Shown: piece after piece, positions 2,714 through 50,864 of the stretch
Layout of the letters: every line of letters starts with the position of its first letter
How positions within the stretch are numbered: the stretch's first letter is position 1
From: Thermoguttaceae bacterium
GTDB lineage: Bacteria > Planctomycetota > Planctomycetia > Pirellulales > Thermoguttaceae
Assembly: GCA_039680305.1 (NCBI GenBank)
Contig: JBDKTH010000436.1
Location: 1 to 50,864, forward strand
Reading direction: 5' to 3'
DNA: 50,864 nucleotides
Made by a program: the position numbers and the translations under genes
The notes under the pieces: model-generated
Databases searched by the model: none
Told to the model about the DNA's origin: nothing
What the model saw: only the letters and a program-made list of their open reading frames with translations

Positions 2714-2928
2714 GCGTGAACACATTGCGAACGCAAGCCCGGAAGTAGTCGTGTCTTGCGTCTTGTCACGTGTGATCGTCTATGGTCACGGATTCTCACC
2801 TGTTGTCATCTGTTTTGTCCCACTGGGACAAACGTCAGCGGTGACTCTCGAAAGCGGAGACCAATCGTCTCCGCTGGCGCAGCCGCTTGCCGATCCGTTG
2901 CGGACGCCTCTCACAGGGAGGTGTTGCG

Positions 2929-7568: not shown

Positions 7569-7676
7569 CCACCTCGTCTTGTCGCGCGTCGAGTCCTAGA
7601 AATGCTTGGCAACCGCCGGCTTCGCGTCCAACACCCTTTCCCCCAACCCATCACGTTTTTTGTGAGGAGTCCATCC

Positions 7677-10220: not shown

Positions 10221-10235
10221 TCGAGGAGGTGTTTT

Positions 10236-33646: not shown

Positions 33647-33677
33647 CACGCTGGCCAGTGGACCTGCAGCATCAACG

Positions 33678-34778
33678 CTAGCATGTTTCGGCGCTCGATC
33701 CGCCCGGTTCGTGCGCGATCGTACGAATTGCCGTCGTCCATCGTGAGGCGGCTTCCGGCGTGTCCGCGTCCTTCCACGCATCAACAAGCTCGACGGGAAC
33801 TTTCACGATACGACTCTTCGGGTGTCGTGAGATCTCTCGCAGACCGCTGTGGCTCCACGCGGCAATCGACTCGATCGCCTTGCGACATCGGAAGTCATAC
33901 CATGCCAGGAGAGGTTCTACGGCCCCCCCCTCCAACACCCGTGGTAGTAACGCCCATACGCCAGGTCTTCGCTGCGACAGGACCCACGATACTGCCTGCC
34001 GCGACAGCAGCGGCAAATCGCAGGCCGTCAGCAACCACGTCGCCCGAGGCGCCCAGCGCATAGCCGCCAAGAGGCCGGCCGTGGGCCCCTTAGTACCAGG
34101 CGAGTCTGGAAGATGCGGCAGATAGCGAAGGTCCTCCGGGACATCTCCGCGGCCAGCAAGCACCACTTGCGAACAGCAAGCCTCCAGAGCAGAAACGGTT
34201 CGGTGCAACCAGGTTCTGCCGGCTCCGTCAGCATCTGGAAGCAGATGCTTCGGACATCCCATCCGCGTGCTGCGGCCTCCGATCAAGACGCAGCCGAACA
34301 CCGGGGCAGTCCGCGATCGTTCGCTGACAAACTGCAGAAGGACGTTCTCAAGCACGGAATCACGATCGGCCGCCCAGGGCAAGATCGGGTCAAAGGGCCC
34401 CAGATCATCTGGTGGCGAGTGTTCATCGCGCCCGAGAAGCCACGTCTTCCGGCACGGGAGCCGCTTGAAGCCTTCGAGCAGGATAAGGTCGTAACGAGCG
34501 GCAAGACGGTCGAGCTCCCACTCCAGCGACGCGTCTTCCTGATGGAGACTTCGCGAAAGTGACTCGCCGGGCCCGCGCACGATAACATCTGCGCCTGCGA
34601 GAAAGAGTCGATCGCTATCCTTGTCCGGACAGTCGCGGTCGATTCCATGGACGTCATGTTTGACCACGGCGACCCGAAGCCCACGCCGGACAAGCCGAGG
34701 CAGGATCCTCGCCAGCAGCGTCGTCTTCCCCGAGCCGCTATAGCCGCAGACACCGAAGACAGGTAGTGAGTCAAACAT
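33678..34778 (-). CDS. mobA: MobB-MobA fusion (Mo-cofactor guanylyltransferase with its adapter)
   Basis: N-terminus VFGVCGYSGSGKTTLL...VAVVKHD (MobB). C-terminus VFGCVLIGGRSTRMGCPKHLL (MobA). Confidence 0.85.
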   Translation of the reverse strand: MFDSLPVFGVCGYSGSGKTTLLARILPRLVRRGLRVAVVKHDVHGIDRDCPDKDSDRLFLAGADVIVRGPGESLSRSLHQEDASLEWELDRLAARYDLILLEGFKRLPCRKTWLLGRDEHSPPDDLGPFDPILPWAADRDSVLENVLLQFVSERSRTAPVFGCVLIGGRSTRMGCPKHLLPDADGAGRTWLHRTVSALEACCSQVVLAGRGDVPEDLRYLPHLPDSPGTKGPTAGLLAAMRWAPRATWLLTACDLPLLSRQAVSWVLSQRRPGVWALLPRVLEGGAVEPLLAWYDFRCRKAIESIAAWSHSGLREISRHPKSRIVKVPVELVDAWKDADTPEAASRWTTAIRTIAHEPGGSSAETC

Positions 34779-35739
34779 GAGCTGACTTCAATGAAATGGG
34801 TCGCCCGCAATCCGATACTTCGCCGCGCAGCGTCGCCAGGCCGTGTGGGAGAGCAGGTAGCACCACGCTCAGGTTCTCGCTTGCGGCCCGCACGGAACCG
34901 GGGAGATTCAGGATCAACGTCCGGCCACGGATGCCCGACGCTCCGCGGGAAAGCATGGCATGAGGGGAACACTGGAGCGACGCGGCTCGCATTGCCTCAT
35001 CCAGTCCGGGCGTGAACCGTTCCACGACGCTTCGGGTCGCCTCGGGCGTGACGTCGCGAGGACCAAAGCCGGTCCCCCCAACCGTCACGACCAGGTCGAT
35101 GGAGTGCCCATCGCAGTAGTGCCGAAGCCGCTCACCAATCGTATCTTTCTCATCCGGCAGGATGTCATTCGCGAAGACATGGGCGCCAAGTCCACCCTGA
35201 AGAAGCGAAGCAATTGCCGGACCGGCGGTGTCCACACTCTCGGCACGGCTGCAACGGTCGCTGATCGTCAGGACAACAGCCTGGAGTGTCGCACGTGCGA
35301 CGCTGTGGGTCACCACGGCCTCGACGCCGGCCAACACTTGGCCGCTCGCCTCCACGCGGGCGAAGAGCCCCCGGCGCGGCATAATGCAGTCACCCGTGAG
35401 GTGATGAATGCGACATGGGGCATGACAGGTCTTGCCGATCTGAGTGATCGAGAGCACAACGCTCGTTCCCAGGCGAATCTGCGAGCCGAGGCCAAGTTCG
35501 CCTAGCTTCAGCCCGGAAACAACGAGGTTCTCGGCGAATGCACCCGGTTGCAGATCGGGCAAGCCGTTGCGCCGAACCTCGTCAATATCCGCGCCGTCCA
35601 GTAAGCTAACTTGGCGATGCCATGCCCCGGCATGGGCGTCCCCTTCGATGCCGTGGTTGGCGGCAAACGTTGCCTGCGCGACGGGGGTCTTGCGTTCCCC
35701 CTTGCGCTGACTGATACAAACCGCTTCGACTCTGCCCAT
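34771..35739 (-). CDS. MOSC domain fused to a MogA/MoaB-type domain
   Basis: N-terminus VEAVCISQRKGERK...HGIEGDAHAG (MOSC). C-terminus VVLTISDRCS...DLVVTVGGTGFGPRDVTPEAT (MogA/MoaB). Confidence 0.8.
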   Translation of the reverse strand: MGRVEAVCISQRKGERKTPVAQATFAANHGIEGDAHAGAWHRQVSLLDGADIDEVRRNGLPDLQPGAFAENLVVSGLKLGELGLGSQIRLGTSVVLSITQIGKTCHAPCRIHHLTGDCIMPRRGLFARVEASGQVLAGVEAVVTHSVARATLQAVVLTISDRCSRAESVDTAGPAIASLLQGGLGAHVFANDILPDEKDTIGERLRHYCDGHSIDLVVTVGGTGFGPRDVTPEATRSVVERFTPGLDEAMRAASLQCSPHAMLSRGASGIRGRTLILNLPGSVRAASENLSVVLPALPHGLATLRGEVSDCGRPISLKSAHV

Positions 35740-35743
35740 CGCT

Positions 35744-36271
35744 TCACTCCTTTCGCCGCCAGTGCCCTGATTTGCCCCCTTGTTTCTCCAACAACCGAAT
35801 CGGTCCGATAGTAATGCCCTTTTCCAGCGATTTCACCATGTCATAGACGCACAGGGCTGCCACGCTGGCTGCCGTCATCGCTTCCATCTCAACGCCGGTG
35901 CGTCCCTGGCACTTGACCGTCGCCACGAGCCGCACCCGGCCGGCCTTCAACGTAGCAACGACGTCAACGACATCCAAAGGAAATGGATGGCAAAGGGGAA
36001 TCAACTCGGGCGTGCGTTTCGCGGCCATGATTCCGGCGAGTCTTGCCGTTTCCAGCACATTCCCTTTCGCACCGCCCCCCTGCTGCCGAATCATCCGTGC
36101 CACGGCCGGCCCGACCTCGACCCAGGCCTCGGCCACGGCGGCTCGCCGCGTGGACGGTTTGCCCCCCACATCCACCATGCGTGCGGAGCCGTCGGCAATG
36201 TGGGTCATCCGTTTGGGCGGAGCCTTTGCTTTGCGGGAAGTGAGATCGGTCCGCATGGGGTTCTCCATCAT
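35744..36271 (-). CDS. moaC: Cyclic pyranopterin monophosphate synthase MoaC
   Basis: LTHIADGSARMVDVGGK..., LIPLCHP, GRTGVEMEAMTAASVAAL. Confidence 0.9.
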   Translation of the reverse strand: MMENPMRTDLTSRKAKAPPKRMTHIADGSARMVDVGGKPSTRRAAVAEAWVEVGPAVARMIRQQGGGAKGNVLETARLAGIMAAKRTPELIPLCHPFPLDVVDVVATLKAGRVRLVATVKCQGRTGVEMEAMTAASVAALCVYDMVKSLEKGITIGPIRLLEKQGGKSGHWRRKE

Positions 36272-37513
36272 TCAAATGCGATGTGCCAGGAGACTGAAGG
36301 AGAGCGTGTGCCCGATCGGCAGTTCCTTCTGGCCCGGCGGCACTTCGACATACGCGTTGGCTTCATGGGAGTGGAAAATGTCGGCCGAGCTCGCCGCCGA
36401 AAGCGGGAGGATAGTCCAGCCATCGGGCGAGGGCGCCTCCGACTGGACCACGGCCGGCACGAACCGTGTTCGGCCACGGTCGGGCTGAAGCGGTGCGAGG
36501 AGGTGTCCCTGCCCGGTGGCCGTCTCGGTGCCGCGGCCGCCCATTCCGGCAATGGCGGCTCTCACATAGCGGCAGAAACAGAAGTGACATGCCAGCGGAT
36601 TGCCCGGCAGCCCGAAAAGCAGGCTCCGGCCTCGCCGGGCCAGCAGCAGCGGCTTGCCGGGTTTCTGCACGACCTTGTGGAAGAGGATCTCCGCACCCCC
36701 GTCGAGGAGCACCTCGGGGACGAGGTCGAAGGTACCCACCGAGGCTCCGCCGCTGAGCACGACAAGATCGCATTGCCCTGCCTCATCGAGGGCGGCACGG
36801 ATGGCGCCGCGGTCGTCGCCCACCAGCCTGCACATCGGCAGTGCCAAGCCGGAATCGAGTGCCAAGGCCGCTAGCATGAGGCCGTTCGAGTCGCGAATCT
36901 GGCCGTCGCGGGGGCGTTGCGAGCCGACGACGAGTTCCTCGCCGGTGACGATCAGGGCCATCCGCGGCGAGGGAATCACCGCAATCTCGCGCCGGCCGAT
37001 GCTTGCCAAGGCGGCGATTGCCAACGGCGTCACTACGGCGCCGTCCAGGATGACTTCCTCGCCCGCTGGACAGTCGCTGCCCACTTCGGCGATATGTAAA
37101 CCCGGCGGGATCGTCGCGGGCAAGACCACCCGGTCTGCGTCGTAGCGGATGTGCTCTTTCTGCACGACGGCTTCCGTGCCCGGCGGGCAGGCGGCGCCGG
37201 TCATGATCTCCACGCACCCCTGCGGGGTCACGCGATGAGCCATCGTTTCGCTCCCCGCTGGTTGTCGGCCGACGACGGCGATGGCTTGACCGGCGGAAGC
37301 CAGGCTCACTGCGTAGCCGTCCATCATGGCACGCCGGAAGGGCGGATAGTCACGATCGGCGTGAACCGACTCGGCCAAGGGCCGGCCCATCGCGTCGAGT
37401 AACGGTACTTGCCGGGCGGGCAATGGCGTAGCAGCATCAAGGACTATACGATAGGCTTCGGCGGGGGAAACCATGGTTGATACGCGACTCGTTGGACTGT
37501 GGGCGAGAGACAT
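36272..37513 (-). CDS. moeA: Molybdopterin molybdenumtransferase MoeA
   Basis: AGGAGA RBS. GQIRDSNGLML, LVVLSGGASVGTFDLV, VVQKPGKPLL, GLPGNPLAC. Confidence 0.9.
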   Translation of the reverse strand: MSLAHSPTSRVSTMVSPAEAYRIVLDAATPLPARQVPLLDAMGRPLAESVHADRDYPPFRRAMMDGYAVSLASAGQAIAVVGRQPAGSETMAHRVTPQGCVEIMTGAACPPGTEAVVQKEHIRYDADRVVLPATIPPGLHIAEVGSDCPAGEEVILDGAVVTPLAIAALASIGRREIAVIPSPRMALIVTGEELVVGSQRPRDGQIRDSNGLMLAALALDSGLALPMCRLVGDDRGAIRAALDEAGQCDLVVLSGGASVGTFDLVPEVLLDGGAEILFHKVVQKPGKPLLLARRGRSLLFGLPGNPLACHFCFCRYVRAAIAGMGGRGTETATGQGHLLAPLQPDRGRTRFVPAVVQSEAPSPDGWTILPLSAASSADIFHSHEANAYVEVPPGQKELPIGHTLSFSLLAHRI

Positions 37514-37528
37514 TGACCGATCTCCTGG

Positions 37529-38539
37529 TTAACCGCCGATCCATACCATTTGCCGCTTAGGCCAGGTTTCGCCCGGCGAGCACTTCGCTACGAGACAGGT
37601 ACGTATTCGCCCGGCGATCTCGTCCTCGTCACCGCGATGAAGTGGCGTCAGCAGGTCTTCGATGTGCGGGCTTCGCAGGCACGACACAAGGCGGCCGCGA
37701 CAATCGAGCCGCAGGCGGTTGCACTTTGCACAAAAAGGATGCGACACCGGTGTGATAAGACCGATCGTCACGGGGCGTCCCTCAACCGTGAAGCAATATC
37801 GCCGAGCCGTTCCGTCTCCATCCAGTTCGCCCAGGCAGGCAAACTCCTGTTCCAAGGCCGTCAGTGCCTCGTTGGCTGGCAGAAAGTCCGTTGCAAAAAG
37901 CGTCGCTCCCGGGCCGCACGGCATCAGTTCAATGAAGCGGATCTCGCAGCCAGAATCGACCGCCAATCGCACAAGCGAGCCCAGACGGCCACCGTTCACA
38001 CGGCGGATAAGCACGCTGTTGAGTTTGAGCTTCACAAAGCCTTCGGCCTGAGCCGCTCTGATTCCGGCCAGCACGCTGTCAAGCTGACCGCCGCGAGAAA
38101 GCGTGGTAAAGGCCGCCGGGTCCAGGGTGTCGAGGCTGATGTTCAGAGCGTCGAGGCCCGCCGCACGCAGCGGTCCGGCCAGCCGCAACAGCAATGAACC
38201 GTTCGTCGTCAACGCCAGCACTGCGTCAGGCAAGATCGCACGAAGGTTTCGCACAAGATCGACCAGGCCAGAACGCAGGAGCGGCTCGCCCCCCGTCAAC
38301 CGGAGTTTGTGCAAAGGGCGCACTCGATCGATGTACCGCACGAGTTCAAGAAGCTCCTCGTTGGATGCAGATGGTGGCGAGGATTCATCGCGGGCCGCTT
38401 TGGCAGGGCGGCAATATTGACAACGGAAGTTGCAGCGGTCGGTGACCGACAGTCGCAAATACAGTGGTTGCTGGACCGTCCGGAGACAATGGAACACGCT
38501 CGTTTCCTTTCCTGGCACGGGCTGCGGCGAACCTACCAA
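37529..38539 (-). CDS. moaA: GTP 3',8-cyclase MoaA (radical SAM); TTG start uncertain
   Basis: LRLSVTDRCNFRCQYCRP (CX3CX2C), and C-terminal CAKCNRLRL cluster. Confidence 0.9.
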   Translation of the reverse strand: MVGSPQPVPGKETSVFHCLRTVQQPLYLRLSVTDRCNFRCQYCRPAKAARDESSPPSASNEELLELVRYIDRVRPLHKLRLTGGEPLLRSGLVDLVRNLRAILPDAVLALTTNGSLLLRLAGPLRAAGLDALNISLDTLDPAAFTTLSRGGQLDSVLAGIRAAQAEGFVKLKLNSVLIRRVNGGRLGSLVRLAVDSGCEIRFIELMPCGPGATLFATDFLPANEALTALEQEFACLGELDGDGTARRYCFTVEGRPVTIGLITPVSHPFCAKCNRLRLDCRGRLVSCLRSPHIEDLLTPLHRGDEDEIAGRIRTCLVAKCSPGETWPKRQMVWIGG

Positions 38540-38566
38540 GACCGTGCGATCCCTGGTTCGGGTCTC

Positions 38567-39220
38567 CTATACGGGATTGTCTTTCGATTCGAGTCCTCGC
38601 ACCGCCTGGTCATCGGACACGTGACCAACTGTGCCCGATGGCGCGGTGGGACCCGCGCGCTGGCGCAGCAGTTCGGCTACAGTCGCGAGATAACCGATTC
38701 CCGACTGTTGCAGGGCCGTGGCCAGTGGCTCGGCAATCACGGCCAGATGCTCGGCCAGAAATCGCTGCGTTGCCTCGGCCGTGACCTCCCGTTCCTCGGA
38801 CTGACCGCCGAGCGAAGCATACGCCTGTTTCAATTGCATAAAGGCGACAAAGCCGGTTTCGACCGCGACATGGTCTGGCGATTCTGAACAGCGAGTCTGG
38901 TAGCCGAAGGCCTCGTAGTAGGCTTGCAGTTCGGACAGCAGGCCGCCGGGCACCATCGTCACGTGGTAGCTCACTTCCCGAGGGCTCGCCGGCCCACCAG
39001 GCCCGAGCGTGGAGTGGTAAAGACCAGCATCAGCCTCTTCGTGGGCCTGTCGAGCGGCAGCGGACAGGCTCTCGTCGGCTACCTCTGCTGCCAGCAAGAC
39101 CAACTCCTCACGCCACTCGGGTTCCGGTGGCTCAAACAACAGCCCCAACAGCCGCCACTCGACCGATTGTCGCAGGAGCTCGTAGGAGAGGCCGTCGGAA
39201 CTCGTCGATGGATTGCTCAT
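38567..39220 (-). CDS. TorD/NarJ-family redox-enzyme maturation chaperone (delta)
   Basis: ATGA overlap with the gamma gene. PDHVAVETGFVAFM and the surrounding helical pattern are typical of the TorD/DmsD/NarJ family. Confidence 0.7.
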   Translation of the reverse strand: MSNPSTSSDGLSYELLRQSVEWRLLGLLFEPPEPEWREELVLLAAEVADESLSAAARQAHEEADAGLYHSTLGPGGPASPREVSYHVTMVPGGLLSELQAYYEAFGYQTRCSESPDHVAVETGFVAFMQLKQAYASLGGQSEEREVTAEATQRFLAEHLAVIAEPLATALQQSGIGYLATVAELLRQRAGPTAPSGTVGHVSDDQAVRGLESKDNPV

Positions 39221-40086
39221 GGTTGCACCTCGAAAACCAAAGGGATCCAGGCGGTCCGCATCTTGCGGGCACCGACCTCCTGGCGTCCGCCTTCCCACAC
39301 GGCGAAGGCGACTTGGGAGCCGTTCTGCGGTGAGAGGCCCTTGGGTAAGTCGCGGGTAATGACCACGCTCCAACCGCTCGTGGTGCGGCGGCCGGCGCCC
39401 GTCGAGTTGCCGTCTGGTTTTGGGGCGAGAGTTCCCGGGCCCTCGGCGATCAGGTCTTGGACCGGCGTGTCCCGGGGGCCGGCCATCGTGTTGCCGACCG
39501 CCCGGGCCGGCGCATAACGGCCGGCCATTTCCCGTTGCGGAGCGGACCCCGACGGCAGGGAAGTTGCTTCAAAGGGGTAGTGGTCGACCGCGGCATTCGG
39601 GTAGATGTCACGAATCGAATCGCCGCGCCCATCGACGACCGCCTGCCAGGCGGCGTTCCATAGCACGATTTCCACCCCGCGTCCCAACTCGCCCATCTGC
39701 GGCGCGGGAACTGTCGCCGCGACGACCTGGGGAAGTTGCACGGCACAGGCATCCGTGAAGCGGGCCGCACCGCCCAGATCGTCCTTCGTGGGATCGGCCC
39801 ACGCCAGCCGGAATGCCAGGCGACGCCCGTCGGAAAGCGCACGAACGCGGACCTCGGCCGTCGAAAGCTTCAGCAATCGCGGCTCCACCAGATCCTGGGC
39901 GATGAGCTTGGCCACATGTTCGGGCGTTCCGTCCCAGACCGGGGCATCGGGCGTTCGGGGTAGCGCGGTGCACGCCGCCACCACCACGTCGGACAGAGGT
40001 GCCGGCGGCGGGGCCTGACGACATCCGGCCGAGAGGCAGACCGCCAAGGCACCCACGCTCGAGAGCCAGCCAATCGGGATTCGCAT
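39217..40086 (-). CDS. Gamma subunit: EB_dh-like (EbdC/NxrC/SerC-type) haem b domain with a lipoprotein signal
   Basis: MRIPIGWLSSVGALAVCLSAGC (lipobox), then WDGTPEHV...RVRALSDGRRLAFRLAWAD...AVQLP...FAVWEG, typical of type II DMSO-reductase gamma subunits. Upstream part of ORF 39217..41253 is out-of-frame overlap with beta. Confidence 0.7.
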   Translation of the reverse strand: MRIPIGWLSSVGALAVCLSAGCRQAPPPAPLSDVVVAACTALPRTPDAPVWDGTPEHVAKLIAQDLVEPRLLKLSTAEVRVRALSDGRRLAFRLAWADPTKDDLGGAARFTDACAVQLPQVVAATVPAPQMGELGRGVEIVLWNAAWQAVVDGRGDSIRDIYPNAAVDHYPFEATSLPSGSAPQREMAGRYAPARAVGNTMAGPRDTPVQDLIAEGPGTLAPKPDGNSTGAGRRTTSGWSVVITRDLPKGLSPQNGSQVAFAVWEGGRQEVGARKMRTAWIPLVFEVQP

Positions 40087-40169
40087 GAACGGGTCTCCTG
40101 AGAACCCTTCACACAACCCGGATCTCTCCGGCGTTGTCTCGGGGCAGTATCGGGTAATGTTCGGGGGTC

Positions 40170-41261
40170 TTATGGACAATTGCTTCGCATGACTTGATGT
40201 TTGGAGTCGAACGCCTTGCGGATGTAGACCGGCTCTTTGAGCGGCACGCGGACGATCTCGCGCCCGTTGTCCTCCAGCGCGCTGATCCAATCGTCCTGAC
40301 GGCGCCAACGCGGCACGAGGCGGTCCGTGCAGCCGAACAGGCTCAGCAGGCCGGCCAGGTCGAGATCGTCCGGTGCGCTGCGGTAGGTCTGAATCGCCGT
40401 CGCCACACGGGGGCCAAACATCTGCGTAAGGAACGCGTCGGGGGCCTGGATCGGCGGAATGTAGTAGACGTTCGGCTCCAGGCCGAATTGAGGAAACAGC
40501 GGCAGTGCGACCTTGCGCACGTGCACGAGATAATCGAGGGGATTGTCGGGCTGAGCCTTCTCGGGCGGCGAGAGCCAGCCGGCCAGGCGGATCTTGCCGA
40601 TGCAATTGACAAAGCACTGCGGCTGCAGCCCCTGCTCGATCTTGGGGAAGCAGGCAATGCACTTCTCCGAGGTGCCGGTAAGCGGATTGAAGAAGACCTT
40701 CTTGTACGGGCATGCCCTCACGCACTCCCGGTAGCCGCGGCAGCGGCTCTGGTCTACCAGGACGATGCCATCCTCGGGGCGTTTGTAGATCGAGCCGCGC
40801 GGGCAGGAGGCCAGGCAGGCGGGATAGGTGCAATGGTTGCAGATCCGTGCCAGGTAGAAGAACCAGTTCAAGTGCGGGACCTGCATCGCCGCGCCGCGGT
40901 CGACCCGGCCGGCGCAATCGTCCTCGCCGACGTTCGGGTAGGCGTAGTCCAGATCGTCGGGACGCCATCCGAGCACCCGCTGGCCGGCCTGGGCGGCCTC
41001 GAAGATCGTGCGTCCGGCATACTGATTGCCCTGCCACTCCTGGGCCCCTAGCTTGGTGAGAAGGTTCAGGTCCCAGGCCAACGGGTAGCAGCCGTAGGGC
41101 TTCGACTCGACATTGTTCCAGAGCATGTACTCCTGGCCTTTTCCCGACGTCCATGTCGTCTTGCAGGCGAGGGTGCAAGTCTGGCAAGCGATGCACTTGT
41201 TGAGATCGAAGACCGCCGCAAACTGCCGTTTCGGCCGGTTCTCCGGATACCAATACGACAT
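40170..41261 (-). CDS. Beta subunit: NarH/NxrB-type four-cluster Fe-S protein
   Basis: [49 protein letters not shown]...CFVNC. Confidence 0.9.
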
Positions 41262-41299
41262 TGACCGACCGATCTGCCAGTTGTAAGCCAATGCCACGG

Positions 41300-44200
41300 C
41301 TAGCCTTCCTTTCTTTTGACAGGATGCGGAACGGCGCCGACGAGGAATTCGCCGGCGAGGTAGTGCGCCATCGCTTCCGATTCGTACATGGGGCGGATGC
41401 CCAACGCCGCGGGGCGCCAGAGGCCCTCGGCCTCCAGCCCGCCCGGCTCGGCGCGGGTGATCTTCACAATCGCCTCGCGCGGAGCGCCGGTCGGACAATG
41501 GACGTCGGGCATGAACCCTTCGCCGATTCCCTGGCCGAACATCGTCTTGCGGACCAGCGAATCGGTCATCAACGTGGGCTTCAGCCAGCCGCGGGTGGCC
41601 GATTGGTGCGATCCGGAACGGAACATTGCCTGGTACGGGGTCCGTGGATTCTTCGCCAAGCCGTCCTTGCGGACCCTCTGCCCCTCCTGCGAGCCAGGGG
41701 TGGTGCCGTACATATTGAACCACATCCGCGTCACGCCTCGCGGGGTGCCCGGGTAGTACCGCGCCCGACAGAGCAGCCGCGCGAATTGATAGTCCTTGGC
41801 GTTCTTCTGCCAGCCGCGGAAGGGGCGATCCTCGGGATCGGAATCGATCCACACGTAGTCGCCGTCTTCGACCCCCAGATCCTTGGCGTCGAGGGGATGG
41901 ATGTCGACGTAGCCTTCGGTCACGAAGGGACTTCGCTTGTCGCGCCGGTAGACGTCGCCAAACGGACCGAAGAGCATCGCCACCATGTCGGTGTCGATGG
42001 GCATCGTGTGGGCCCCATGGCGGTACTTCGGCGTGTGGAACACGAAGCGATAACCGTCTTTCGCCAAGGGATGGACCGATTGGCTCGTCTCGACCCAAGT
42101 CTTGACCACGTTGCGCCCGCAACGGGTTTCGCAGGAAAGATCGTCGCGGCTGACGCCGTACTTCTCCGGCCCCGCCGGACGAATCGCCTCGTGTTGCGGA
42201 GCCACGATCACGTTCGGCTCATAGAAAGTCGAGTCGACCGGCTCCCGGTGCACGGGCAGGTTCTCTCCCGCTTCGATGAATTCGTCTTCTTCGCGGTAGA
42301 GTTCCAGACGGCCGCTCTTCGTGTACCAGGGACGCGAATCGGTCACTTGCTCGTAACCGACGGCCTTCGGGCTCGTGCGGCTCTGGAGAATCGCCGGGAT
42401 CCCCTCCTTCGCCTTGGCCTCTAGGTCGCGGAACTCGTAGCCCTTCGCGTTGCAGGAATGGTCGAGAATCCGCTGCAGGTACACGTCGGTGCGTCCCTCG
42501 CGGACGAACTTCCAGTAATCGTTGAACCGCGTGTCGCCAGTGAGCGCGGCCATCTTGGAGGCCACCAGGGCCAGGACCTCGATGTCGCCAATCGTGTGGA
42601 AGATTCGCTTCAGCGGCGTTCGCGGAAAGATCGAGAGGAAGGGGTTCGTGACGGAAGCCGTCATATCGGGGTGTTTCAGCTCCGCCCACGAATCAACCCC
42701 GAACACCACGTCGGCCCACTCGCACGACGTGGACCACCACCACTCGTTCACGCAGATCATCTCGATTCGCGGCAGCATGTTCACCACCATGTTGTAGTGC
42801 CACTTCACATTTCCCAGGATGGAGTTGGCATTGGCGAACCAAAGCGACTTTGTGGGAGTCGGAATGTGGGTCAAGCCGGTGAGCAGGCGATTGCCCACTC
42901 GTAGCGGGTGGTCCTCGTGGTTGTAGTAATGGGCCGATTCCGACTTCCAATACTGTCGCGGGCGCGCCGGTTTGGCCGGATCCAGCTCGATGTCAAAGGG
43001 ATTTTCGTTGATGTACTGAGGGGCCCCATTGAACAGGGCAACGCGATGGTTGCCGGAGAAGGAGCCGACGTTGCCGCCGATCTTACCGACGTTGCCGGTC
43101 AGCGCCGCCACGAGAAAGATGTCGCGGTCCTTGCTGGCGTTGTTGAAGAACTGGTTCGGCCCCATCCCAAGCGCGAAGAGCGTGGTTCCCGGCTTTGCGG
43201 CGAAATGTCGGGCGAGCGACTCCACCGCCACGGCCGGCGCCCAGGTGAGCTCCTCGGTGGTCTTGGGATCGAAATGCTCGGCATACTCACGAACCAAGTC
43301 GAACACGGGACGGCAGCGGACCGTTTTGCCGTCGGCCAGTTTGACTTCAACGCTCCCCTCCAGCAGTGCTTTGCCGACCTTCGATTGCGTGCCGACCTGG
43401 TCGCGGGTCAAGGCCTGGGGCTTGGCCGAATCTTCGTTCCACCACACGTAGTCCCCCCATTTGTCGCGTATCGCGATGGGAATCAACATCTCCTTCTGCA
43501 CGCCTGCCGGCGGTTCTTGTTCGCCCTCGGCCAGAACGCGGGTGCTATTGGAAAGCTCGGCCGGTTGCCCCCCGAAGACCTCTTGGGCTCGGAGGTACTT
43601 GAGCGTGTCCATGCGGACCAACAGCGGCAGGTCCGTCCACTGGCGAACGTAGTCGATGTCATAGAGACGCTCGCGAAGAATCACGTGCGCAAGCCCCAAC
43701 GCCAACGCCGGTGTCGTGCCGGGGCGGACGACGATCGCGTCGTCGGCCTTGGTGCAGGTGGCCGAGTACTCGCAGGCGATCACCACGATCCGCGTCCCCT
43801 TGAGCCTCGCCTCGGTAAGCCAGTGGGCGTCGGGCATCTTGGTGGTGATCCAGTTCATCCCCCACACGACCAGCGTCTTGCAGTGTTCGACGGCCGAGAG
43901 GTCGAACTCGACGGCCTGCTGGCCGGTGACCATGGGGTGGCCGGGGGGGAGATCGGTATGCCAACTGAAGTTGTCGAAGCCCTTGGCCCCCAGGGCCTCG
44001 TCGGGCGGCACTTTGCGGATTGCCGCGTCCAGCAAGGCCAGCGAGTTGGCGAAACGATACATCCCGAAGACCCGCGTCATACCCAACAGCGGCATCCCGC
44101 CGCGAAACTTTAGCACCTGCGTACCGGCGCCCTGCGTGGCCTCGATCGTGAGCGGGTCGTAGTGTTGGGCCGCCAGCCGCTTCTGCCCCGCTTCGCCGGT

Positions 44201-44770
44201 GTAGGTCTCGGCGATGTTCCTCAGGGCCGCGGCGACGATTGTGGCCGCTTCGTCGTGCGACAGGCGGAGCCACTGATCGCGGGCCCGCTGGAAAAACTCC
44301 TCCGGCGGTCGTCCATCTTCCCCTCGCGGGAAGCCCGCTTCCACCCATCGCTTAAAGCCGGCCCGGACCATGCACTGGTTGACGCGGCGGTCCCCGTAGA
44401 AGCGTCGGGTTAGGACTAGGCCCTTCTGGCAGACCCGCGGGTCCCAGCGGTGGGTCGTGTGGTTGCCCTCCAGGTCGCTCGCCTCCCCGTAACGCATCGT
44501 GGGGCCGATGCGTGTCACCACACCGGAGCGTACATAGGCATTGAGGATGCAGTTGTGTGTATCGTTTGGAGCGCAGAGGAACGTGAACGTCGAGTCGTGT
44601 TTCCACAGATCCCGGTACGCCCGTTCCCAGTCGCGATCGGGGTAGGCAGCCAAGGGGTTGGTCACCGCGTCGAGGCCCCAAGCGCGGGTGGCCGACGCCA
44701 CAAAGGCCCCGAAACCGGCCGCGCTGGCTGTCGCAAGAAAGTCACGGCGGGATTGATGGTTCTGGCTCAT
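41300..44770 (-). CDS. Alpha subunit: Tat-exported molybdopterin oxidoreductase of the periplasmic Nar/NXR (type II DMSOR) type, 1156 aa
   Basis: GGAGA RBS. SRRDFL twin-arginine signal. N-terminal cluster motif C-APN-D-THN-C at 44549-44575. Very large size. Co-operonic beta, gamma and delta. Confidence 0.9.
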
Positions 44771-46434
44771 TTCCGCGTCTCCCAAGTGCGCAGGTAGGCC
44801 ACAATCGACTCGATGTCGGCGGGCGTAAGGATTGGGTAGATCGTTGAAGGATTGAGGAATCCGTGCATGGCAGTGCCGCGCCTCCCTCGGACGATCGTTT
44901 CTACGAGATAATCGTCCGTCGCCGTGGCAAGCAGGATTGGATTGTTAAGTGCCGGGGCATCGAGACCCTCGCCGCCAGCGCCATGGCAGCCCGCGCAATG
45001 GCGAGTGAAGAGCTCTTTGCCCCGGCTTGGCTCAGCATTGATCCAACGCGGGGCGAGATGGACGGGCGTCGGCGCGCCCACCTCGGCCGTCTGTCGGAGG
45101 TGGGCGATGATCGCCGCGATTTCATCCTTCCGCAACCCGCCAGCCGTTTCACTCCAGGCGGGCATCCGGCGACCGGGACGCCCCAACCAGATCGTCGCGG
45201 CGAGAAACCCATCGCTGGCGGTGGCCAGGAAATCCGCATTGCCGATCGCCGGGAAGGGCGGTGTTCCGGCGAAACGCCGCCCCTCGCCTGAGGCTCCGTG
45301 GCAGGCGGCACAGAACGTGGCGTAGAGCGTGGCCCCGTCCGTCCCAAATTCACGCTGCCCGAATCGCTCCGTCTGGATGCGGTCCTTGGGCCAATAGGCT
45401 TCCGGGACATCGCTCCTCCGCAACGAGAGCACGTAGTAGGTCAATAGGTCCACTTCGTCCTGGCTCAGTCCGAACTTTGGCATCTTTGAGCCGGGGACGA
45501 CGCGTGCCGGATCGCGAGTATGCTCGGAGAGCCAGTTGGCCAGCGTGTGCTCGCCCGAGACGTGGGCGAAGTCGAGTTGGCCGGGGTCTCGCAGTCCAAT
45601 CCGCGTCAAGTCTGGCCCGTCGTCGCCGCCAACGCCGCCGATCTTGTGGCAGCCGCGGCAGCCGAGGGAATGGAACAGGGCTTTCGCTTCGATCAGCCGC
45701 GGAGCGCCAACCCGCGATGTCAAATACGACTCAATCGTCTCGCGATCCATGGGGGCGAACGTGGAGAGTCTGCCCTTCCAAGCCTCATGGTCGGGCCGGC
45801 GCACACGTTGGAGATGTTTTTCGTGCCAGTCCTGGTCGAATCCGGTCACTCCGACCTTCGACAGATCAGGGCCCTCCATCCCGCCGGCCCCGCCGGGGCG
45901 AAGCGTGCCGCCGCGTCCGTCGATGCGATGGCACGCCAGGCAGTCGTGCCGCTCGACTAGGTTACGTCCGCGAACCAATTGGTCTTGGCTCGGCACCTGG
46001 AGATGGGTGTGGCAGCTTCCGCAGCCGGCATACGCATACCGCGTAGGGATCATCGGCTCCGGCCAGAAGTGAACCTCCCCATGGGCGTCGGCCTTGTCCG
46101 TCGCCCGTCCCTGTCCGCCGTGACAGACCGTGCAACCGAACTCCGCCGGGTCGTGGCCGACCGGCGGGTGGGCACAAGCCGCAGGATGCCCGCTGACGCC
46201 CTGCTTCCCTGGGGCCATGCCGACGTGGCAGGTCACGCAACGATCCGTGACGCCGAGCTTCGGCACGACGACCTGACGCAGACGCACCTCCAGCGGGCCA
46301 GCATCGGTCTGGACCGAGGTCTGGATTTGCCGCCACTCCCTCAGGAAGTTCTCCTGCACAGCCGCCGCGATCAGCAAGCCCAGCGTGCCGAGACTCGACC
46401 AGAGAAGCAGATGTTTGTTCTTGTTCATTGCCAT
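44767..46434 (-). CDS. Membrane-anchored cytochrome c with seven CXXCH motifs
   Basis: N-terminal [55 protein letters not shown]. The last four sit in class-I-like domains. Confidence 0.85.
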
Positions 46435-47984
46435 CAGTGCCTGGGCCAGTCGGCGGGAGACCAGTAGAAATCCCAGTTCGGACCGCGGAAGTAAGTGCCG
46501 ACCACCGTCAGCACGAGGAATCCGCAGAGGAAGCAGGTGAACAGCGCCAACGCGCCGGCCCGGGCCGACCCGTATCGCTTCACGATCCACAGGGAGTAAG
46601 CGGCATACATGGCGGCCAGAATCGTGCCGGGGTTGATCGCCGTAATCACCAACTGCGGGATTCCTGGAAACCACTCGCGCAGCCAGCCGAAGCGGATGGC
46701 AAAGGCCTCGATCGCCAACACGGCCACCAGGCCGAACCCGAGCGACCCCAGGACCAGTCGCACGCCGCCGGGCCCGCCAAACCACAGGCCCGTTCCGGTC
46801 TCTTCCCGGTCGAGGAACGGAATTAGCCCGAGCCCGACGAGGACAATCATGGGGATCCCGACTCCGCCCATGAACGCCGAATAGGCCACCAACTCCTGCA
46901 ACCCCAGGAAGTACCAGGGGGCTTTGGCGGGGTTCTCGGGAACACTCGGATTGGCCAACTCCTTCAATGGCGCGTCGGAGACCATCGCCAGGGCAAGACA
47001 GAGGAAGAGCGTCACCATCAACACGCCGAGTTCGGCATAGAACAGGTGGGGCATCGAGGGGACCGTGTTTTCCGGCCCGCGTCCGACGGCGGGAGAGACG
47101 CCCCTGACGACCGCCGCTAGATGATAGGTCTTGGCCGGCGCCTCGGTAAACACCGGATAAACGTCTGATGCGGGTTCCAGACGCTGATCGGCATCCACGG
47201 GCCGGGTCATGCCTCCATCCTTCCGGATTCGCCAGAAGTGGACCGCCAGCAGTCCTACGACTGCCAAGGGGAGAATCGCCACATGCAGCACATAGAAGCG
47301 GATCAGGGCCTCTTCCCCGACGATATCGGAGCCCAAGAGCAACTGCCGCTGCAGTCCACCCGGATCAAAAACCTGTGTGATGCCATGCACGTCGGTCAGT
47401 TCTCGGGGCGACTGGGCGATATTGGCGCCGATCGTGATCGCCCAGTAGGCGAGTTGATCCCAAGGCAGCAGATAACCGGTGAAGGAGAGGCCCAGCGTGA
47501 CCACCAAGAGGCTCATGCCGATGAGCCAGTTGAACTCGCGGGGTTTTCGGTAAGCGGCCGTGTAGAAGGCCCGCGCCATGTGAAGCAACACGGCAACGAC
47601 CATGATGTTGGCCGCCCACCGGTGGATGTTGCGGATGAAACGGCCGGTCGGCACGACAAAGTGAATATCCTTGATCGAGTCGTAGGCCACCTCGGGGTAC
47701 GGCTTGTAGTAGAACATCAACAGCACCCCGGTCACGAGCGCAATGAGGAAGGCAGCGGTAGCCGCGATTCCCAGCCCCATAGTCGTGGACCACCGCAAGC
47801 TCCAGCGATGCGTCCGCACCGAGTGAAGATGGAGGAAGACATTGCCGAACACGAAGTTCGACCGCGTGCGATCGGTGGTGGGAGGTCCATTGCGCAGCGC
47901 CGAGTCTCGAATGCGCCACGGGGCTCGGACGAGGTCTCCCAAGAACTTCCGCAGCGGCCTGTCTTCCGTAGCATTCGTGTTCAT
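46434..47984 (-). CDS. Cytochrome b (fused b6 / subunit IV-like), 516 aa
   Basis: [52 protein letters not shown]. Confidence 0.9.
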
Positions 47985-48466
47985 ACGCGCACCTTGGTTC
48001 CTGTGGAGACCGTCGCGCCCTCATCGATCAGACATTCCGAGCCGCTGATCGTGACGGGGTGCCAGGGAAGCGCCTTGGGGGCTGGTCCGCGGAGCACGCT
48101 TCCGTCGGCCGCGAAGTGAGAGCCGTGGCACGGGCACTCGAAGCCTTCCGGCACGGGCTTGACAATACAGCCCAGGTGCGTGCAGACCGTGGAAATCGCG
48201 TACACGCCCTCCGCATCGCGGAAGAGGGCCACGCTGCGACCCGGCGGCACGAAGGGCTGGCCGGGCGCCAGCGACTCGGGAAACGTCACGCGGAACTTCT
48301 TCGACGGGGAGGTCAGCACGGCCGCCTTGGGCAACCGCAGCATTCCCAGGCCGGCGAAGGCGAGGGCCGCCAGCAAGGAGCCCAGGGCCGAGAGCCCCAG
48401 GACATCACGACGCGGCACGGGCTCCGGATCAAGGCGAGAGCGAGACTCGGCGAGCGGGACGGTCAT
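47981..48466 (-). CDS. Rieske [2Fe-2S] subunit (alternative start 48478)
   Basis: PRRDVLG Tat-like anchor. CTHLGC...CPCHGS. ATGA overlaps at both ends. Confidence 0.85.
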
Positions 48467-50385
48467 AGGGTCCTCCATTGGGTCGAACAAGCCACTCGCT
48501 CCATGCTGATCGCATCCGCCGGGCATCGCATGGCGCACAGCGCGCAGCGGATGCAACGGTCCTCGTCCTTGAGGATGGCCGAATGCTCCGCTCGAACGGC
48601 GTCTGCTCCGAGGAAGGTGTCGACGAGAGCGTCGAGGTCCGCGCCCGGTTCGATCTCGGCCAGGGAGGCCAGTTTCAGGCATTGCGTGGGACAAACATCG
48701 ATGCATCCGCCGCACAGCACGCATCGGCTCCCGTCGAACACGGGCGTGACCCCGCAATCCAGGCAACGCGACGCTTCCCGCTGTGCCTCGGCAGGGCTGT
48801 AACCGCATTCGACGACCATATCCGGTCGGCGCAAACGCTCTACCGGCTCAGTCGTTGGAACCGGTGCACGGCGGATGGCCTCGTAACCCGGCTCCCGCTG
48901 ATACCGTTCCAGCGTCAGATGGACGGTGATTGCCTCGGCCGCAAGCTGCCGCCCCGTAACGTGACGGTACACCGATCGCGCGGCCGCTTTGCCCGATGCC
49001 ACGGCGTCGATCAGTAATCTCGTGCCATGGGCCAGATCGCCGATGGCGAACACGCCATCGGCGGTGGTGGCCAGCGTGTCCGGATCGACTTTCGGCCAAC
49101 CGGGGCGGTGCTGCTCGATGTCCGTGCCGCCGTCTTCCAGGAACGCGAGGTCCGTCGCCTGCCCGACCGCCAACAGGACCGTGTTGCAGGGGACCGTCCG
49201 GCGTTGGACGTCGTCGTACTGAGGCGAGAAGCGGCGGTTTGCGTCATAAACCCGAAGACAACGACGGAAGGTCACGCCGCACACCGCTCCGTTGGCGTCC
49301 CGCTCGATCGCCACCGGCCCCCAGCCGCCCATCCGCTCGATACCCTCTTCATCCCCCTCGATGATCTCCACGGTGTCGGCCGGCATGTCTTCGAGGGTCT
49401 CCAGCGACACCAGCGTGACCTTGCCGGTGCCGGGCCGCCGGGCGGCGGTACGGGCCGTGTCGAGGGCGATCTGACGAACGACCGTCCGTGCGACGTCATA
49501 GGCCACGTTACCACCACCGAGGACCACGACCTCGCGTCCCATCTCCAGCGTCTCCCCCAACGCGACCGCACGCAGGAGGTCGACACCGCCGAAGACACCC
49601 GGGCCGCTTTCGCCGGGAAGCCCGAGACTCCGCGAGCGTTTGGCGCCAACGGCGAGAATCACGGCCTTATAGTCCCGTCGGAGACTGGCAAGCGAGACGT
49701 CTTTGCCCACAGTTACGCCGCAATGGATCTTGACGCCCAGGGCCTCGATGACCGCCACTTCCCGGCGGATCAAGTCGCGCGGCAAGCGGTAGGCCGGCAC
49801 GCCCAAGGCGAGCATGCCCGCCGGAATCGGCTCCGCTTCAAATACGACCGGACAAAACCCCATCAGGGCAAGGTCGTGTGCGGCGGCCAGCCCCGCAGGT
49901 CCGGCGCCGACAATGGCGATCGACTCTCCCCCGGCCGGCACGAACTGGCCGGCGACGCCTGCGCGGAGCAGCGAGGCCATCTCCTCGGCGTCCGCCGACG
50001 CTGGGGGCGTCGCCCCGCGAAGGGCCTGGAGGGCCTCCTCCGCCGTGCAATCGTCGAAACCGGACTGTTCATAGGCGAAGCGTTTTAACGCGCGGATCGC
50101 CACGGGCCGGTCCTGGGCCACGAATCGTCCGTCGGCATCGACGCGGGGCACCTTTCCGCGTCGGCAGGCCGCCTCACACGGCGCGCCGCAGATGCGCCCA
50201 CAAATCGACGCCAGCGGATTGGGGCCTCGGGCGATCAGGTACGCTTCTTCCAAGCGCCCAGCGGCAATGGCTCGCACGTATCCTCGGGCATCGGTATGCA
50301 CCGGGCAGGCAACCTGGCAGGCGATCAGGTTGCGATGATAGCCCGCACCGGGAATGTCCACATGGATTGGAGCCAGAGGGTTCAT
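48463..50385 (-). CDS. GltD-like FAD/NAD(P)-dependent oxidoreductase with a C-terminal 2x[4Fe-4S] ferredoxin domain
   Basis: [10 protein letters not shown]...[47 protein letters not shown]-terminus CLDCG...[12 protein letters not shown]...[12 protein letters not shown]. Confidence 0.85.
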
Positions 50386-50397
50386 CGACGGTCTCCC

Positions 50398-50864
50398 TTA
50401 GCCTGTCGCGGTTCCAGCCTTTCTAGAGTGCTTCTTGCCGGGCCTCTTCGAAGGCTTTGGAGATTCAACAACTGCGATCGACTGAAGCCGAGGACACGGG
50501 GCCAGCCAGCACTGCACCTGATTGGCAATGGAAGGGGCGGGGCTCGGCCGGCTCAAGAAATCCGCCAGTGTCCAGCGGGAAAGGACACTCACGATGGCGT
50601 GGTGAAGTTCGACCCCCGCTTGGTGAAATGCGCAGGTCTTTGACGAATCCGTGGCATCGCTGCAGAAGTCGCCGAGGATGGTGCCTTGACAGGCCTCGAC
50701 GACCGAGAGCAGAGAGATGTCACTGGGGGGACGATTAAGCGAGACTCCCCCGGCGACACCGCGGTGAGCCTTGAGTATCCCCACCCGGACAAGATGTCGG
50801 ACGACTTTGGCGAGATAGGTAGGCGATTCGCCGAGATGCTCGGCCATCAATCGCGGCGACCAGG
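50398..50864 (-). CDS. Rrf2-family transcriptional regulator, N-terminus cut by the window edge
   Basis: ...SPRLMAEHLGESPTYLAKVVRHLVRVGILKAHRGVAGGVSL (winged helix), then C-x8-C-x9-C-x2-H. The reading frame stays open to base 50864. Confidence 0.8.
   Translation of the reverse strand, partial: WSPRLMAEHLGESPTYLAKVVRHLVRVGILKAHRGVAGGVSLNRPPSDISLLSVVEACQGTILGDFCSDATDSSKTCAFHQAGVELHHAIVSVLSRWTLADFLSRPSPAPSIANQVQCWLAPCPRLQSIAVVESPKPSKRPGKKHSRKAGTATG

Follow-up and report, generated by a model that had tools for sequence, protein, structure and literature searches.

The 50,864-nt contig JBDKTH010000436.1 of a Thermoguttaceae bacterium (assembly GCA_039680305.1), referred to below as the window, carries an array of minus-strand genes in which a Rieske/cytochrome b operon is joined to the genes of a molybdenum enzyme of the nitrate reductase/nitrite oxidoreductase (NXR) type. 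Parts of this arrangement have precedents. The adjacency of a 'complex III' and a nitrate reductase is already known from Thermogutta terrifontis R1 (Elcheninov et al. 2017, PMC5673643), where the genes THTE_1506-1512 encode NarGHI and TorD next to complex III. This organism grows anaerobically with nitrate, NrfHA is encoded elsewhere in its genome, and complex III was suggested to participate in nitrate respiration (PMC5673643). T. terrifontis belongs to the same order-level lineage as the window organism (Pirellulales, Thermoguttaceae-like) and, compared by the description in the paper, shares with it the Mo enzyme, the chaperone and the adjacent Rieske/cytochrome b genes. However, the enzyme was called a cytoplasmic NarGHI in that paper, whereas the alpha subunit encoded in the window has a twin-arginine translocation (TAT) signal and the gamma subunit is of the EbdC type with a periplasmic haem b. 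The paper is silent on a GltD-like gene, on conservation across phyla and on an active-site signature.

A Rieske/cytochrome b complex feeding an outward-facing nitrate reductase is likewise known, as a hypothesis, for haloarchaea (PMC3509893) and 'Candidatus Methanoperedens' (PMC4683180). In the haloarchaeal narB-narC-narG-narH cluster (Martinez-Espinosa 2007; Baymann 2012, PMC3509893) the Rieske/cytochrome b genes lie directly upstream of those for an outward-facing NarGH, which is accompanied by a soluble haem b protein. Electrons were proposed to flow from quinol through Rieske/cytochrome b, haem b and NarH to NarG, and the growth on nitrate was antimycin-sensitive (PMC3509893). Unlike the window array, the haloarchaeal cluster contains neither a cytochrome c nor a NAD(P) flavoprotein, and its cytochrome b is of the Actinobacteria/Thermus type rather than b6-like with an APWY motif. 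The same chain as here was proposed for Methanoperedens, leading from menaquinol through a non-canonical Rieske/cytochrome b and multihaem cytochrome c to a pseudo-periplasmic Nar-like enzyme, with Nrf proposed to take part of the nitrite (Arshad et al. 2015, PMC4683180). There, however, the Rieske/cytochrome b and nar genes occur in separate clusters, and a GltD-like subunit was not described (PMC4683180).

Anammox bacteria are known to have Rieske/cytochrome b complexes that include a NAD(P) oxidoreductase. The loci Kuste4569-4574 and Kustd1480-1485 encode, like the window, a Rieske protein, a b6-like cytochrome b, a five-helix subunit IV, a multihaem cytochrome c and a GltD-like NAD(P) oxidoreductase. 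When the window proteins were compared with those of two anammox loci (L081 and L082), identities of 44-47% were obtained for the b6 part of cytochrome b, 34% for subunit IV and 30-45% for the flavoprotein. There were also differences. The flavoprotein gene is the first one in the window core and the second one in L081, cytochrome b and subunit IV are fused in the window and split in anammox bacteria, the Cys that binds haem ci is replaced by Thr in the window, the Rieske protein is of the SF type instead of the SY type, and the cytochrome c has seven haems instead of six or eight. The partner of the complex is an NXR-type Mo enzyme in the window and a HAO-like octahaem protein in anammox bacteria. 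In L082, a Scalinduaceae metagenome-assembled genome (MAG; positions 1-14335), the operon of Rieske, cytochrome b, subunit IV, multihaem c and HAO-like genes was preceded by a gene for a 207-aa Fer4 protein, which occupies the slot of the GltD-like gene of L081. Next to this operon are genes for cytochrome bd-like, cytochrome c and EB_dh-cytochrome c fusion proteins, such as have been described for nxr clusters.

The closest solved structure for the alpha, beta and gamma subunits alike was the NXR-ABC of Kuenenia stuttgartiensis (7B04), which shares with the window enzyme the Asp ligand of Mo, Asn70, a 3Cys/1Asp FS0 cluster, Lys917 and the Met/Lys ligation of haem b. It differs by carrying Asn312 and Glu527 where the window clade has Thr310 and Met536. 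The tubule subunit NXR-T of Kuenenia has no counterpart in the window. A junction of the Kuenenia nxr genes with a Rieske/cytochrome b operon is not known. The Kuenenia enzyme is bidirectional in vitro, reducing nitrate at 1.5 μmol and oxidizing nitrite at 61 nmol per min per mg, a difference of about 25-fold. NXR-like genes have been reported in Planctomycetota MAGs and were usually read as those of possible nitrite oxidisers. The full-text literature that was searched contained no description of a fixed eight-gene core with a flavoprotein, of its conservation across phyla or of a Thr/Met signature.

The extent of the conserved unit was determined by comparing related loci. The search yielded more than 2,500 alpha homologues at E ≤ 1e-50, the best 120 of which were 78-94% identical; the named hosts among these were Planctomycetota, Acidobacteriota and Zixibacteria. 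A scan of one genome per species gave at least 559 species with an alpha relative, and the 80 closest loci were taken with 10-kb flanks, presence being counted among those where the contig reaches far enough. The GltD-like gene was present in 63/63 loci, the Rieske gene in 64/64, the cytochrome b gene in 67/67, the cytochrome c gene in 73/73 and the beta gene in 71/71, and the genes for gamma (65/66) and the TorD-like chaperone (56/57) were missing once each. Although four-nucleotide overlaps are common in operons and therefore mean little by themselves, they were kept at the GltD/Rieske (54/64), Rieske/cytochrome b (40/66), cytochrome c/alpha (51/79) and gamma/TorD (37/66) junctions. Since each gene was present wherever the contig allowed and the overlaps were retained across phyla, the unit is a core of eight genes: GltD-like, Rieske, cytochrome b, heptahaem cytochrome c, alpha, beta, gamma and TorD-like. 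The molybdenum cofactor (Moco) genes and the convergent nrfHA form a second, lineage-specific layer. A preliminary description of this DNA had a Rieske/cytochrome b module joined to a periplasmic Nar/NXR-type enzyme; this was borne out, the enzyme being TAT-exported and the junction strongly conserved over the 80 loci.

The hosts of the examined core loci were Planctomycetota, Acidobacteriota, Binatia and Zixibacteria. A complete core was found in a Thermogutta sp. MAG (L039; alpha 77% identical) and in Thermopirellula anaerolimosa (L085, GCA_054657335.1, 152-21034), where genes for a NorB-type nitric oxide reductase and a Rrf2-hemerythrin protein lie divergently upstream. Clustering of the flanking open reading frames (ORFs) revealed no other universally conserved neighbour; only the Rrf2 gene recurred widely, being the next gene upstream in the same orientation in about 30 loci out of 80, whereas the other neighbours were specific to single lineages. 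The alpha tree followed the phyla for the most part, apart from a few MAGs that are probably mis-binned, so that a recent horizontal transfer of the module between phyla was rejected and its spread looks old rather than ongoing. Five loci labelled Clostridia, Acidimicrobiia, Bifidobacteriaceae or Margulisiibacteriota (L009, L011, L031, L048 and L064) nested in acidobacterial or Binatia alpha clusters and are likely binning or labelling errors.

Within the window, 14 co-directional minus-strand genes were confirmed in the order given earlier, and their names were matched by Pfam and NCBIfam (Table 1). All six junction strings quoted in the preliminary description were exact on the minus strand: ATGA overlaps at 48463-66, 47981-84, 44767-70 and 39217-20, TGATG at the junction of the cytochrome b and cytochrome c genes at 46432-36, and the 8-nt overlap ATGTTTGA at 34771-78. 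From Rrf2 to MobB-MobA the gaps were 12, -4, -4, -1, -4, 38, 83, -4, 27, 15, 0, 4 and -8 nt. A scan with an E. coli-type consensus, a weak test in a planctomycete, placed all minus-strand promoter- and terminator-like matches inside genes and none in the intergenic gaps. The numbers showed no excess over expectation (3 against 2.6 for promoter-like and 7 against 12.2 for terminator-like sites). The scan was uninformative for such a host and was not counted as evidence for a single transcript.

The Rieske protein contained the boxes CTHLGC and CPCHGS, which together with R19-R20 were invariant in 63/63 sequences. Its best PDB matches were 9rk4 and 9rk3, which we take from the molecule names to be Kuenenia Rieske proteins. 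Box II reads CPCHGSxF, and the protein is predicted to be of the SF type, for which a potential of about +200-230 mV follows from the rule quoted from PMC3509893. The cytochrome b aligned to cytochrome b6 over residues 73-257 and continued into a five-helix half resembling subunit IV, with about nine transmembrane segments altogether. The haem ligands H121, H135, H234 and H249 were invariant, as were the extra histidines H52, H54, H59, H108, H313 and H516, with an LHLH motif at H52/H54/H59 that is common to the anammox cytochromes b. The Qo motif APWY, also shared with anammox bacteria, was found in 54/54 sequences. The Rieske boxes, the four His ligands and APWY, invariant in 54-63 sequences, identify a b6f-like Rieske/cytochrome b pair. 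The Cys that would carry haem ci is replaced, T68-x-G-L-G occupying the position of WCMGG (Thr in 52 and Ser in 2 of 54 sequences). A split cytochrome b with the CxGG haem-ci motif, which is common though not universal in the APWY clade, is therefore not what the window encodes, its protein being a single fusion. By its Qo motif, the cytochrome b was placed in the uncharacterised 'APWY clade' of Kao and Hunte (2014), who proposed that this motif marks complexes running in reverse. In the alignment, His52 fell on His43 of the cytochrome b from Scalinduaceae; a His of the same number was proposed by Hauser et al. (2025) to bind an additional b haem at the dimer interface toward the flavoprotein. 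An invariant C484-x-x-C487 pair in the last transmembrane helix is unexplained by the two canonical b haems.

The cytochrome c was predicted to have an N-terminal transmembrane segment, followed by four closely spaced haems and three class-I cytochrome c domains. Exactly seven CxxCH motifs were counted, as had been stated earlier, and all of them were invariant in 68/68 sequences. The C-terminal domains resemble CcoP and actinobacterial QcrC; around its first two haems the protein shows similarity to the multihaem subunit of the anammox Rieske/cytochrome b complexes.

The GltD-like protein combines Fer4_20 and Pyr_redox_2 domains with a C-terminal 2x[4Fe-4S] ferredoxin domain, and its best PDB matches were the GltD-like modules of 9bov, NfnA 9n5u, 8oh5 and NfnB 4ylf. 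These comprise enzymes of the NfnA/NfnB type and GltD-like parts of larger oxidoreductases. Six N-terminal and 11 C-terminal cysteines were invariant in 55/55 sequences. No signal peptide or transmembrane segment was found and the protein was thus read as cytoplasmic. Encoded within the Rieske/cytochrome b operon with an ATGA overlap, and similar to the corresponding gene of L081, this iron-sulfur flavoprotein is a homologue of the NAD(P) oxidoreductase found in anammox Rieske/cytochrome b complexes. It would be a universally conserved, subunit-like member of the module, a role that the preliminary description had missed.

The Mo enzyme was placed in the type II dimethyl sulfoxide reductase family as an NXR/Nar-type alpha-beta-gamma complex with a TAT signal, Mo ligands, FS0 and a haem b gamma subunit. 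The match of alpha to Kuenenia NxrA (7B04_B, E = 2.2e-249) extended over residues 7-1143. The twin-arginine signal SRRDFL occupies residues 7-12 (R8 and R9 conserved in 80/81 sequences each), and the FS0 ligands C66-x3-D70-x3-C74...C114 (3Cys/1Asp) were invariant across the clade. Asn69 and the Mo ligand Asp273, which align to Asn70 and Asp275 of Kuenenia, were invariant in 81/81 sequences. In beta, fifteen cluster cysteines and C116 were invariant (73/73). In gamma, the invariant M131 aligned with the Kuenenia haem ligand Met155, and the invariant K275 was one alignment column off the ligand Lys305. Gamma is probably a lipoprotein; Cys22 of its LSAGC lipobox was invariant in 51/51 sequences, and there was no transmembrane helix beyond the signal.

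Four residue pairs near the Mo centre that distinguish Kuenenia NXR from E. coli NarG were taken from a 2025 review. At position 71/53 (Kuenenia/E. coli), Asp in NXR and Cys in NarG, the window has Asp70; at 312/259 (Asn and Thr) it has Thr310; at 527/542 (Glu and Ala) Met536; and at 917/1092 (Lys and His) Lys915. All four residues were invariant in 81/81 clade members. The active site is therefore a mosaic, in which Asp70 and Lys915 are as in NXR, Thr310 is as in NarG and Met536 is as in neither. A search with a Kuenenia NxrA fragment yielded 120 Kuenenia-like relatives from Nitrospinota, Brocadiaceae, Nitrospirota and others, all of them partial proteins that were used for columns 273, 310 and 536 and not for 915. 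The Asn/Glu pair (D-N-E pattern) was found in 85 of these 120 and D-T-M in none, most of the others being without coverage of one column. Among representatives clustered at 50% identity, Thr-Met-Lys recurred only in the closest one (54% identical). Asn-Glu marked the NXR-like representatives, whereas the NarG/Pcr-like ones, so labelled from their lengths and FS0 type, were marked by Thr, a second residue that was small in most cases (Ala, Thr or Gln, but Trp once) and mostly His.

Thus the window enzyme and 81/81 clade members, having Thr310/Met536, lack the Asn312/Glu527 pair of the anammox/Nitrospina/Nitrospira-type NXR. The enzyme also departs from the classical NarGHI by its TAT signal, by Cys/Asp for His/Cys at FS0, by Lys915 for His and by a gamma subunit of the EB_dh family instead of NarI. 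Two NXR-like loci of the Asn/Glu type were inspected, and neither Rieske/cytochrome b nor GltD-like genes were found within 10 kb of them. The invariant Thr310/Met536 mosaic together with the Rieske/cytochrome b linkage marks the clade as a distinct sub-family within the NXR branch. The 'NXR' alpha of Zixibacteria RBG-1 was reported to lack three of five conserved residues and to be maybe a new enzyme type (Castelle et al. 2013). Because a Zixibacteriota locus (L024) falls inside the window clade, the RBG-1 enzyme may belong to the same sub-family.

We proposed that the core probably constitutes a dedicated respiratory module from (mena)quinol to periplasmic nitrate. Quinol would be oxidised at the Qo site of the b6f-like Rieske/cytochrome b complex, and the high-potential electron would pass through the Rieske cluster to the membrane-anchored heptahaem cytochrome c and from there to haem b in gamma, which is lipid-anchored. 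Through beta with its four Fe-S clusters it would then travel to FS0 of alpha and to the Mo-bis-molybdopterin guanine dinucleotide (bis-MGD) centre, where nitrate would be reduced to nitrite on the periplasmic side. In the window organism the adjacent NrfHA would convert this nitrite to ammonium. The topology signals are consistent with such a path, as alpha and Rieske carry TAT signals, cytochrome c is anchored by a transmembrane segment, gamma has a lipobox Cys and the flavoprotein lacks a signal. Both partners appear to be membrane-tethered and no soluble electron carrier is encoded within the core, hence a physical supercomplex of the core proteins is plausible. Like the stoichiometric assembly that the preliminary description read from the overlaps, it is conjectural.

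The second electron would enter the b haems, which are presumably linked on the cytoplasmic face to the flavoprotein and NAD(P)(H), probably through an extra haem ligated by His52. This link was considered reversible. We slightly favour, for these heterotrophs, an input of NAD(P)H electrons to the Qi side over a quinol-driven reduction of NAD(P)+. An analogous electron input from the NAD(P)H side has been proposed for FNR on the b6f complex. Maturation of the Mo subunit would be served by the co-expressed TorD-like chaperone, joined in this lineage alone by a partial Moco set, and the Rrf2 regulator probably controls the array.

Nitrate reduction was chosen as the direction because T. terrifontis respires nitrate with this cluster as its reported nitrate reductase (PMC5673643), because the obligate anaerobe Thermopirellula anaerolimosa carries the array, because genes connected with nitrogen oxides and NO stress lie nearby, and because Thr310 is reductase-like (NarG/PcrA-type), NXR-type relatives having Asn. 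The opposite direction, in which the Mo enzyme is a nitrite oxidoreductase and a reversed Rieske/cytochrome b complex reduces quinone or NAD(P)+, was judged improbable. Many acidobacterial hosts of the module are aerobes, which counts for nitrite oxidation, and so do the grouping of alpha with the NXRs of anammox bacteria, Nitrospina and Nitrospira, the Qo motif held to mark reverse-running complexes and two MAG papers in which Planctomycetota carrying such genes are put forward as putative nitrite oxidisers. Yet the array occurs in an obligate anaerobe, Thermogutta reduces nitrate, nrfHA lies in the window, and electrons from nitrite (+420 mV) would have to climb steeply to reach menaquinone. 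Moreover, the Asn/Glu pair found in 85/120 NXR-like relatives is replaced by Thr/Met, and the two inspected loci of the Asn/Glu type lack the module. It is even less probable that the enzyme acts on another substrate, for example another oxyanion, and that the module is a quinol:X reductase. Such a function would fit the invariance of Thr310/Met536, absent from the NarG and NXR-type relatives compared, and the missing residues of the Zixibacteria alpha, but Asn69 and Asp273 are conserved, the similarity to Kuenenia NxrA is full-length, the neighbours include the nitrogen-oxide genes NorB, ScdA/RIC, YwiC and Nrf, and Thermogutta respires nitrate with this enzyme as the nitrate reductase reported in its genome.

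The coupling of the two halves allows further explanations. The Rieske/cytochrome b complex could be a general complex III merely co-located with the Mo enzyme and connected to it by diffusible carriers, as might be suggested by the Thermogutta genome paper, which also lists a cytochrome b/c1 complex as part of the aerobic chain (PMC5673643). This was considered quite unlikely in view of the co-occurrence in 63/63 to 73/73 loci across phyla, the overlap of the cytochrome c and alpha genes in 51/79, the lack of a soluble carrier gene in the core, the membrane tethers of both cytochrome c and gamma, and the two Asn/Glu-type NXR-like loci without the module. An electron bifurcation as proposed for the anammox complexes R/b-2/3, with one electron going to nitrate and the other uphill to NAD(P)+ or ferredoxin, must be taken more seriously, though it is still rather doubtful. 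The subunit set equals the anammox one, including the NAD(P) oxidoreductase, b6-like cytochrome b, five-helix subunit IV, multihaem c and extra His, and the closest solved relatives of the flavoprotein include NfnA/NfnB-type enzymes. About 490 mV would be released between menaquinone (-70 mV) and nitrate (+420 mV), against about 250 mV needed for NAD(P)+, and the fixed high-potential partner is one that the anammox Kustd1480-85 model lacks. On the other hand, NAD(P)H is ample in the hosts, which live as heterotrophs or by fermentation, the Rieske protein belongs to the SF type with its lower potential, there is no haem-ci Cys, and the mechanism is a hypothesis in anammox bacteria too. The fuller version, in which the whole core is one supercomplex and menaquinol bifurcates to nitrate and, via the b haems and an interfacial haem, to a flavoprotein making NAD(P)H, appeared unlikely to a slightly greater degree.

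Several points weigh against a dedicated quinol-to-nitrate module as well. The residues near Mo differ from both NarG and NXR (Met536 and the Thr310/Lys915 mosaic), and Castelle et al. suggested another substrate for the Zixibacteria NXR-like enzyme, whose membership in the clade is presumptive. APWY was proposed as a marker of reverse running (Kao and Hunte), and complex III of Thermogutta may also serve aerobic respiration (PMC5673643). The potential of the SF-type Rieske protein, about +200-230 mV, lies below that of the anammox Rieske proteins (above +300 mV), which implies a weaker drive for bifurcation. Finally, a single transcript is presumed, the promoter and terminator scan having used the E. 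coli-type consensus.

If the module works as we infer, many Acidobacteriota, Planctomycetota, Binatia and Zixibacteria would reduce nitrate by an enzyme that marker surveys file as 'nxrA', and MAG-based claims of new nitrite oxidisers would need re-reading. The Thr310/Met536 signature combined with the Rieske/cytochrome b-flavoprotein linkage would be a simple means to separate the clade from true NXRs. Additionally, the pairing of an anammox-type Rieske/cytochrome b with a defined high-potential enzyme in cultured non-anammox bacteria would give an experimental handle on these complexes. Should bifurcation take place, hundreds of species from soil and sediment would obtain low-potential reductant directly from nitrate respiration, and a mechanism debated for about a decade for the anammox complexes would become testable in culturable Thermogutta and Thermopirellula.

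Table 1. Genes of the array and other features of the window
Feature	Position	Strand	Support or remark
Rrf2-family transcription regulator	50398..50864	-	PF02082, E = 7.5e-19; first array gene, cut by window edge
GltD/NfnB-like NAD(P)-binding FAD iron-sulfur flavoprotein, 640 aa	48463..50385	-	Fer4_20 + Pyr_redox_2 + Fer4
Rieske [2Fe-2S] protein, twin-arginine signal/anchor	47981..48466	-	PF00355
Fused cytochrome b6-like + subunit IV-like protein, 516 aa	46434..47984	-	PF00033/PF13631
Membrane-anchored heptahaem cytochrome c, 555 aa	44767..46434	-	PF00034 x3, seven CxxCH
Alpha, Mo-bisMGD catalytic subunit (NxrA/NarG type), 1156 aa	41300..44770	-	7B04_B, E = 2.2e-249
Beta, iron-sulfur subunit (NxrB/NarH type; Fer4_11), 363 aa	40170..41261	-	PF13247; 7B04_A, E = 1.3e-105
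Gamma, haem b subunit (EbdC/NxrC type), 289 aa	39217..40086	-	PF09459 EB_dh; 7B04_C, E = 6e-14
TorD/NarJ-family assembly chaperone (Nitrate_red_del)	38567..39220	-	PF02613, TIGR03482
MoaA	37529..38539	-	Pfam/NCBIfam
MoeA	36272..37513	-	Pfam/NCBIfam
MoaC	35744..36271	-	Pfam/NCBIfam
MOSC-MogA fusion	34771..35739	-	Pfam/NCBIfam
MobB-MobA fusion, last array gene	33678..34778	-	Pfam/NCBIfam
nrfA	31892..33646	+	PF02335, E = 1.2e-111
nrfH	31273..31794	+	TIGR03153, 164 bits, above cut-off
Hybrid sensor kinase, 1204 aa	27378..30992	+	DUF4118-PocR-PAS-HisKA-HATPase-REC-Hpt
899-aa protein	14215..16914	-	right-handed beta-helix/NosD-like C-terminal region
Protein of the mobile-element/defence-type cluster	9279..10220		weak HEPN AbiU2-like match
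AAA ATPase	7602..9164		weak TniB match
Resolvase-domain protein	2887..4914		
Phage-type integrase	1379..2713		
HTH_17 protein	642..1331		

Some gene boundaries in the array are ambiguous. MoaA may start at a TTG or at a GTG 14 codons downstream and MoaC at M1 or M6, and a gene caller set the start of beta 12 codons further upstream in relatives. About 154 codons of the Rrf2 gene are visible; its PF02082 match begins at profile position 29, the N-terminus lying beyond the window edge. The full orthologue in the nearest relative (L083, 178 aa) reached only the Rrf2 superfamily model and was not assignable to NsrR or IscR.

The Moco genes had earlier been regarded as a cofactor pathway hard-wired into the system. 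This did not hold, as most of the 80 loci lacked them within 10 kb. A Moco block identical to that of the window was found only in L083 and L084 (alpha 94% identical). In the next-closest relatives, L001 and L002, a block lies upstream of the core, and that of Thermopirellula (L085) has the order MoaA-CMD-MoaD-MoaE-MoeA-MoaC/MogA-MobA. MoaD, MoaE and MoeB were found neither in the array nor among the scanned window ORFs, so the bis-MGD pathway encoded there is not complete. Rfam models at gathering thresholds had no match in the window or in L083, and hence no Moco riboswitch, and ARAGORN detected no tRNA in the window.

The nrfHA genes are convergent at the 3' end of the array, as previously described, and lie 31 nt from the MobB-MobA stop. 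This neighbourhood was not conserved: NrfA/NrfH were present within 10 kb in 0/80 related loci, and a conserved nrf linkage was rejected after tblastn with NrfA, NrfH and the PocR kinase matched none of them. The earlier statement that a route from nitrate through nitrite to ammonium is encoded was upheld by the presence of NrfHA, and the same route was reconstructed in the T. terrifontis genome paper (PMC5673643). The window NrfA had five CxxCH motifs and no CxxCK, and although its Pfam match was strong, its scores stayed under the equivalog cut-offs of NCBIfam. NrfA variants of the CxxCH type exist, and the protein appears to be a divergent NrfA of this type. It also carries an N-terminal hydrophobic anchor. 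The gene of the PocR hybrid sensor kinase immediately precedes nrfH in the same orientation, and the kinase is a candidate for the regulation of nrfHA. A 712-aa ORF antisense to nrfA (31649-33787, minus strand), with a low-complexity translation rich in Arg, Gly and Ala, was dismissed as a high-GC artefact.

The acidobacterial flanks of the core, at loci including L040, L049-L052, L055, L058, L065 and L078, often contained genes for a YwiC-like membrane protein, a ScdA/RIC di-iron protein, a Crp/Fnr regulator and an outer-membrane barrel of the Alginate_exp family. DUF7009 also recurred in these flanks. In 7 loci of the same survey, a MoaA gene immediately preceded that of the GltD-like protein.

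Elsewhere in the window, the gene of the 899-aa protein with a beta-helix region was flanked by ORFs, several of which had no Pfam match. The genes at 642-11393 make up a mobile-element/defence-type cluster (the last five rows of Table 1), which is probably an integrated element.

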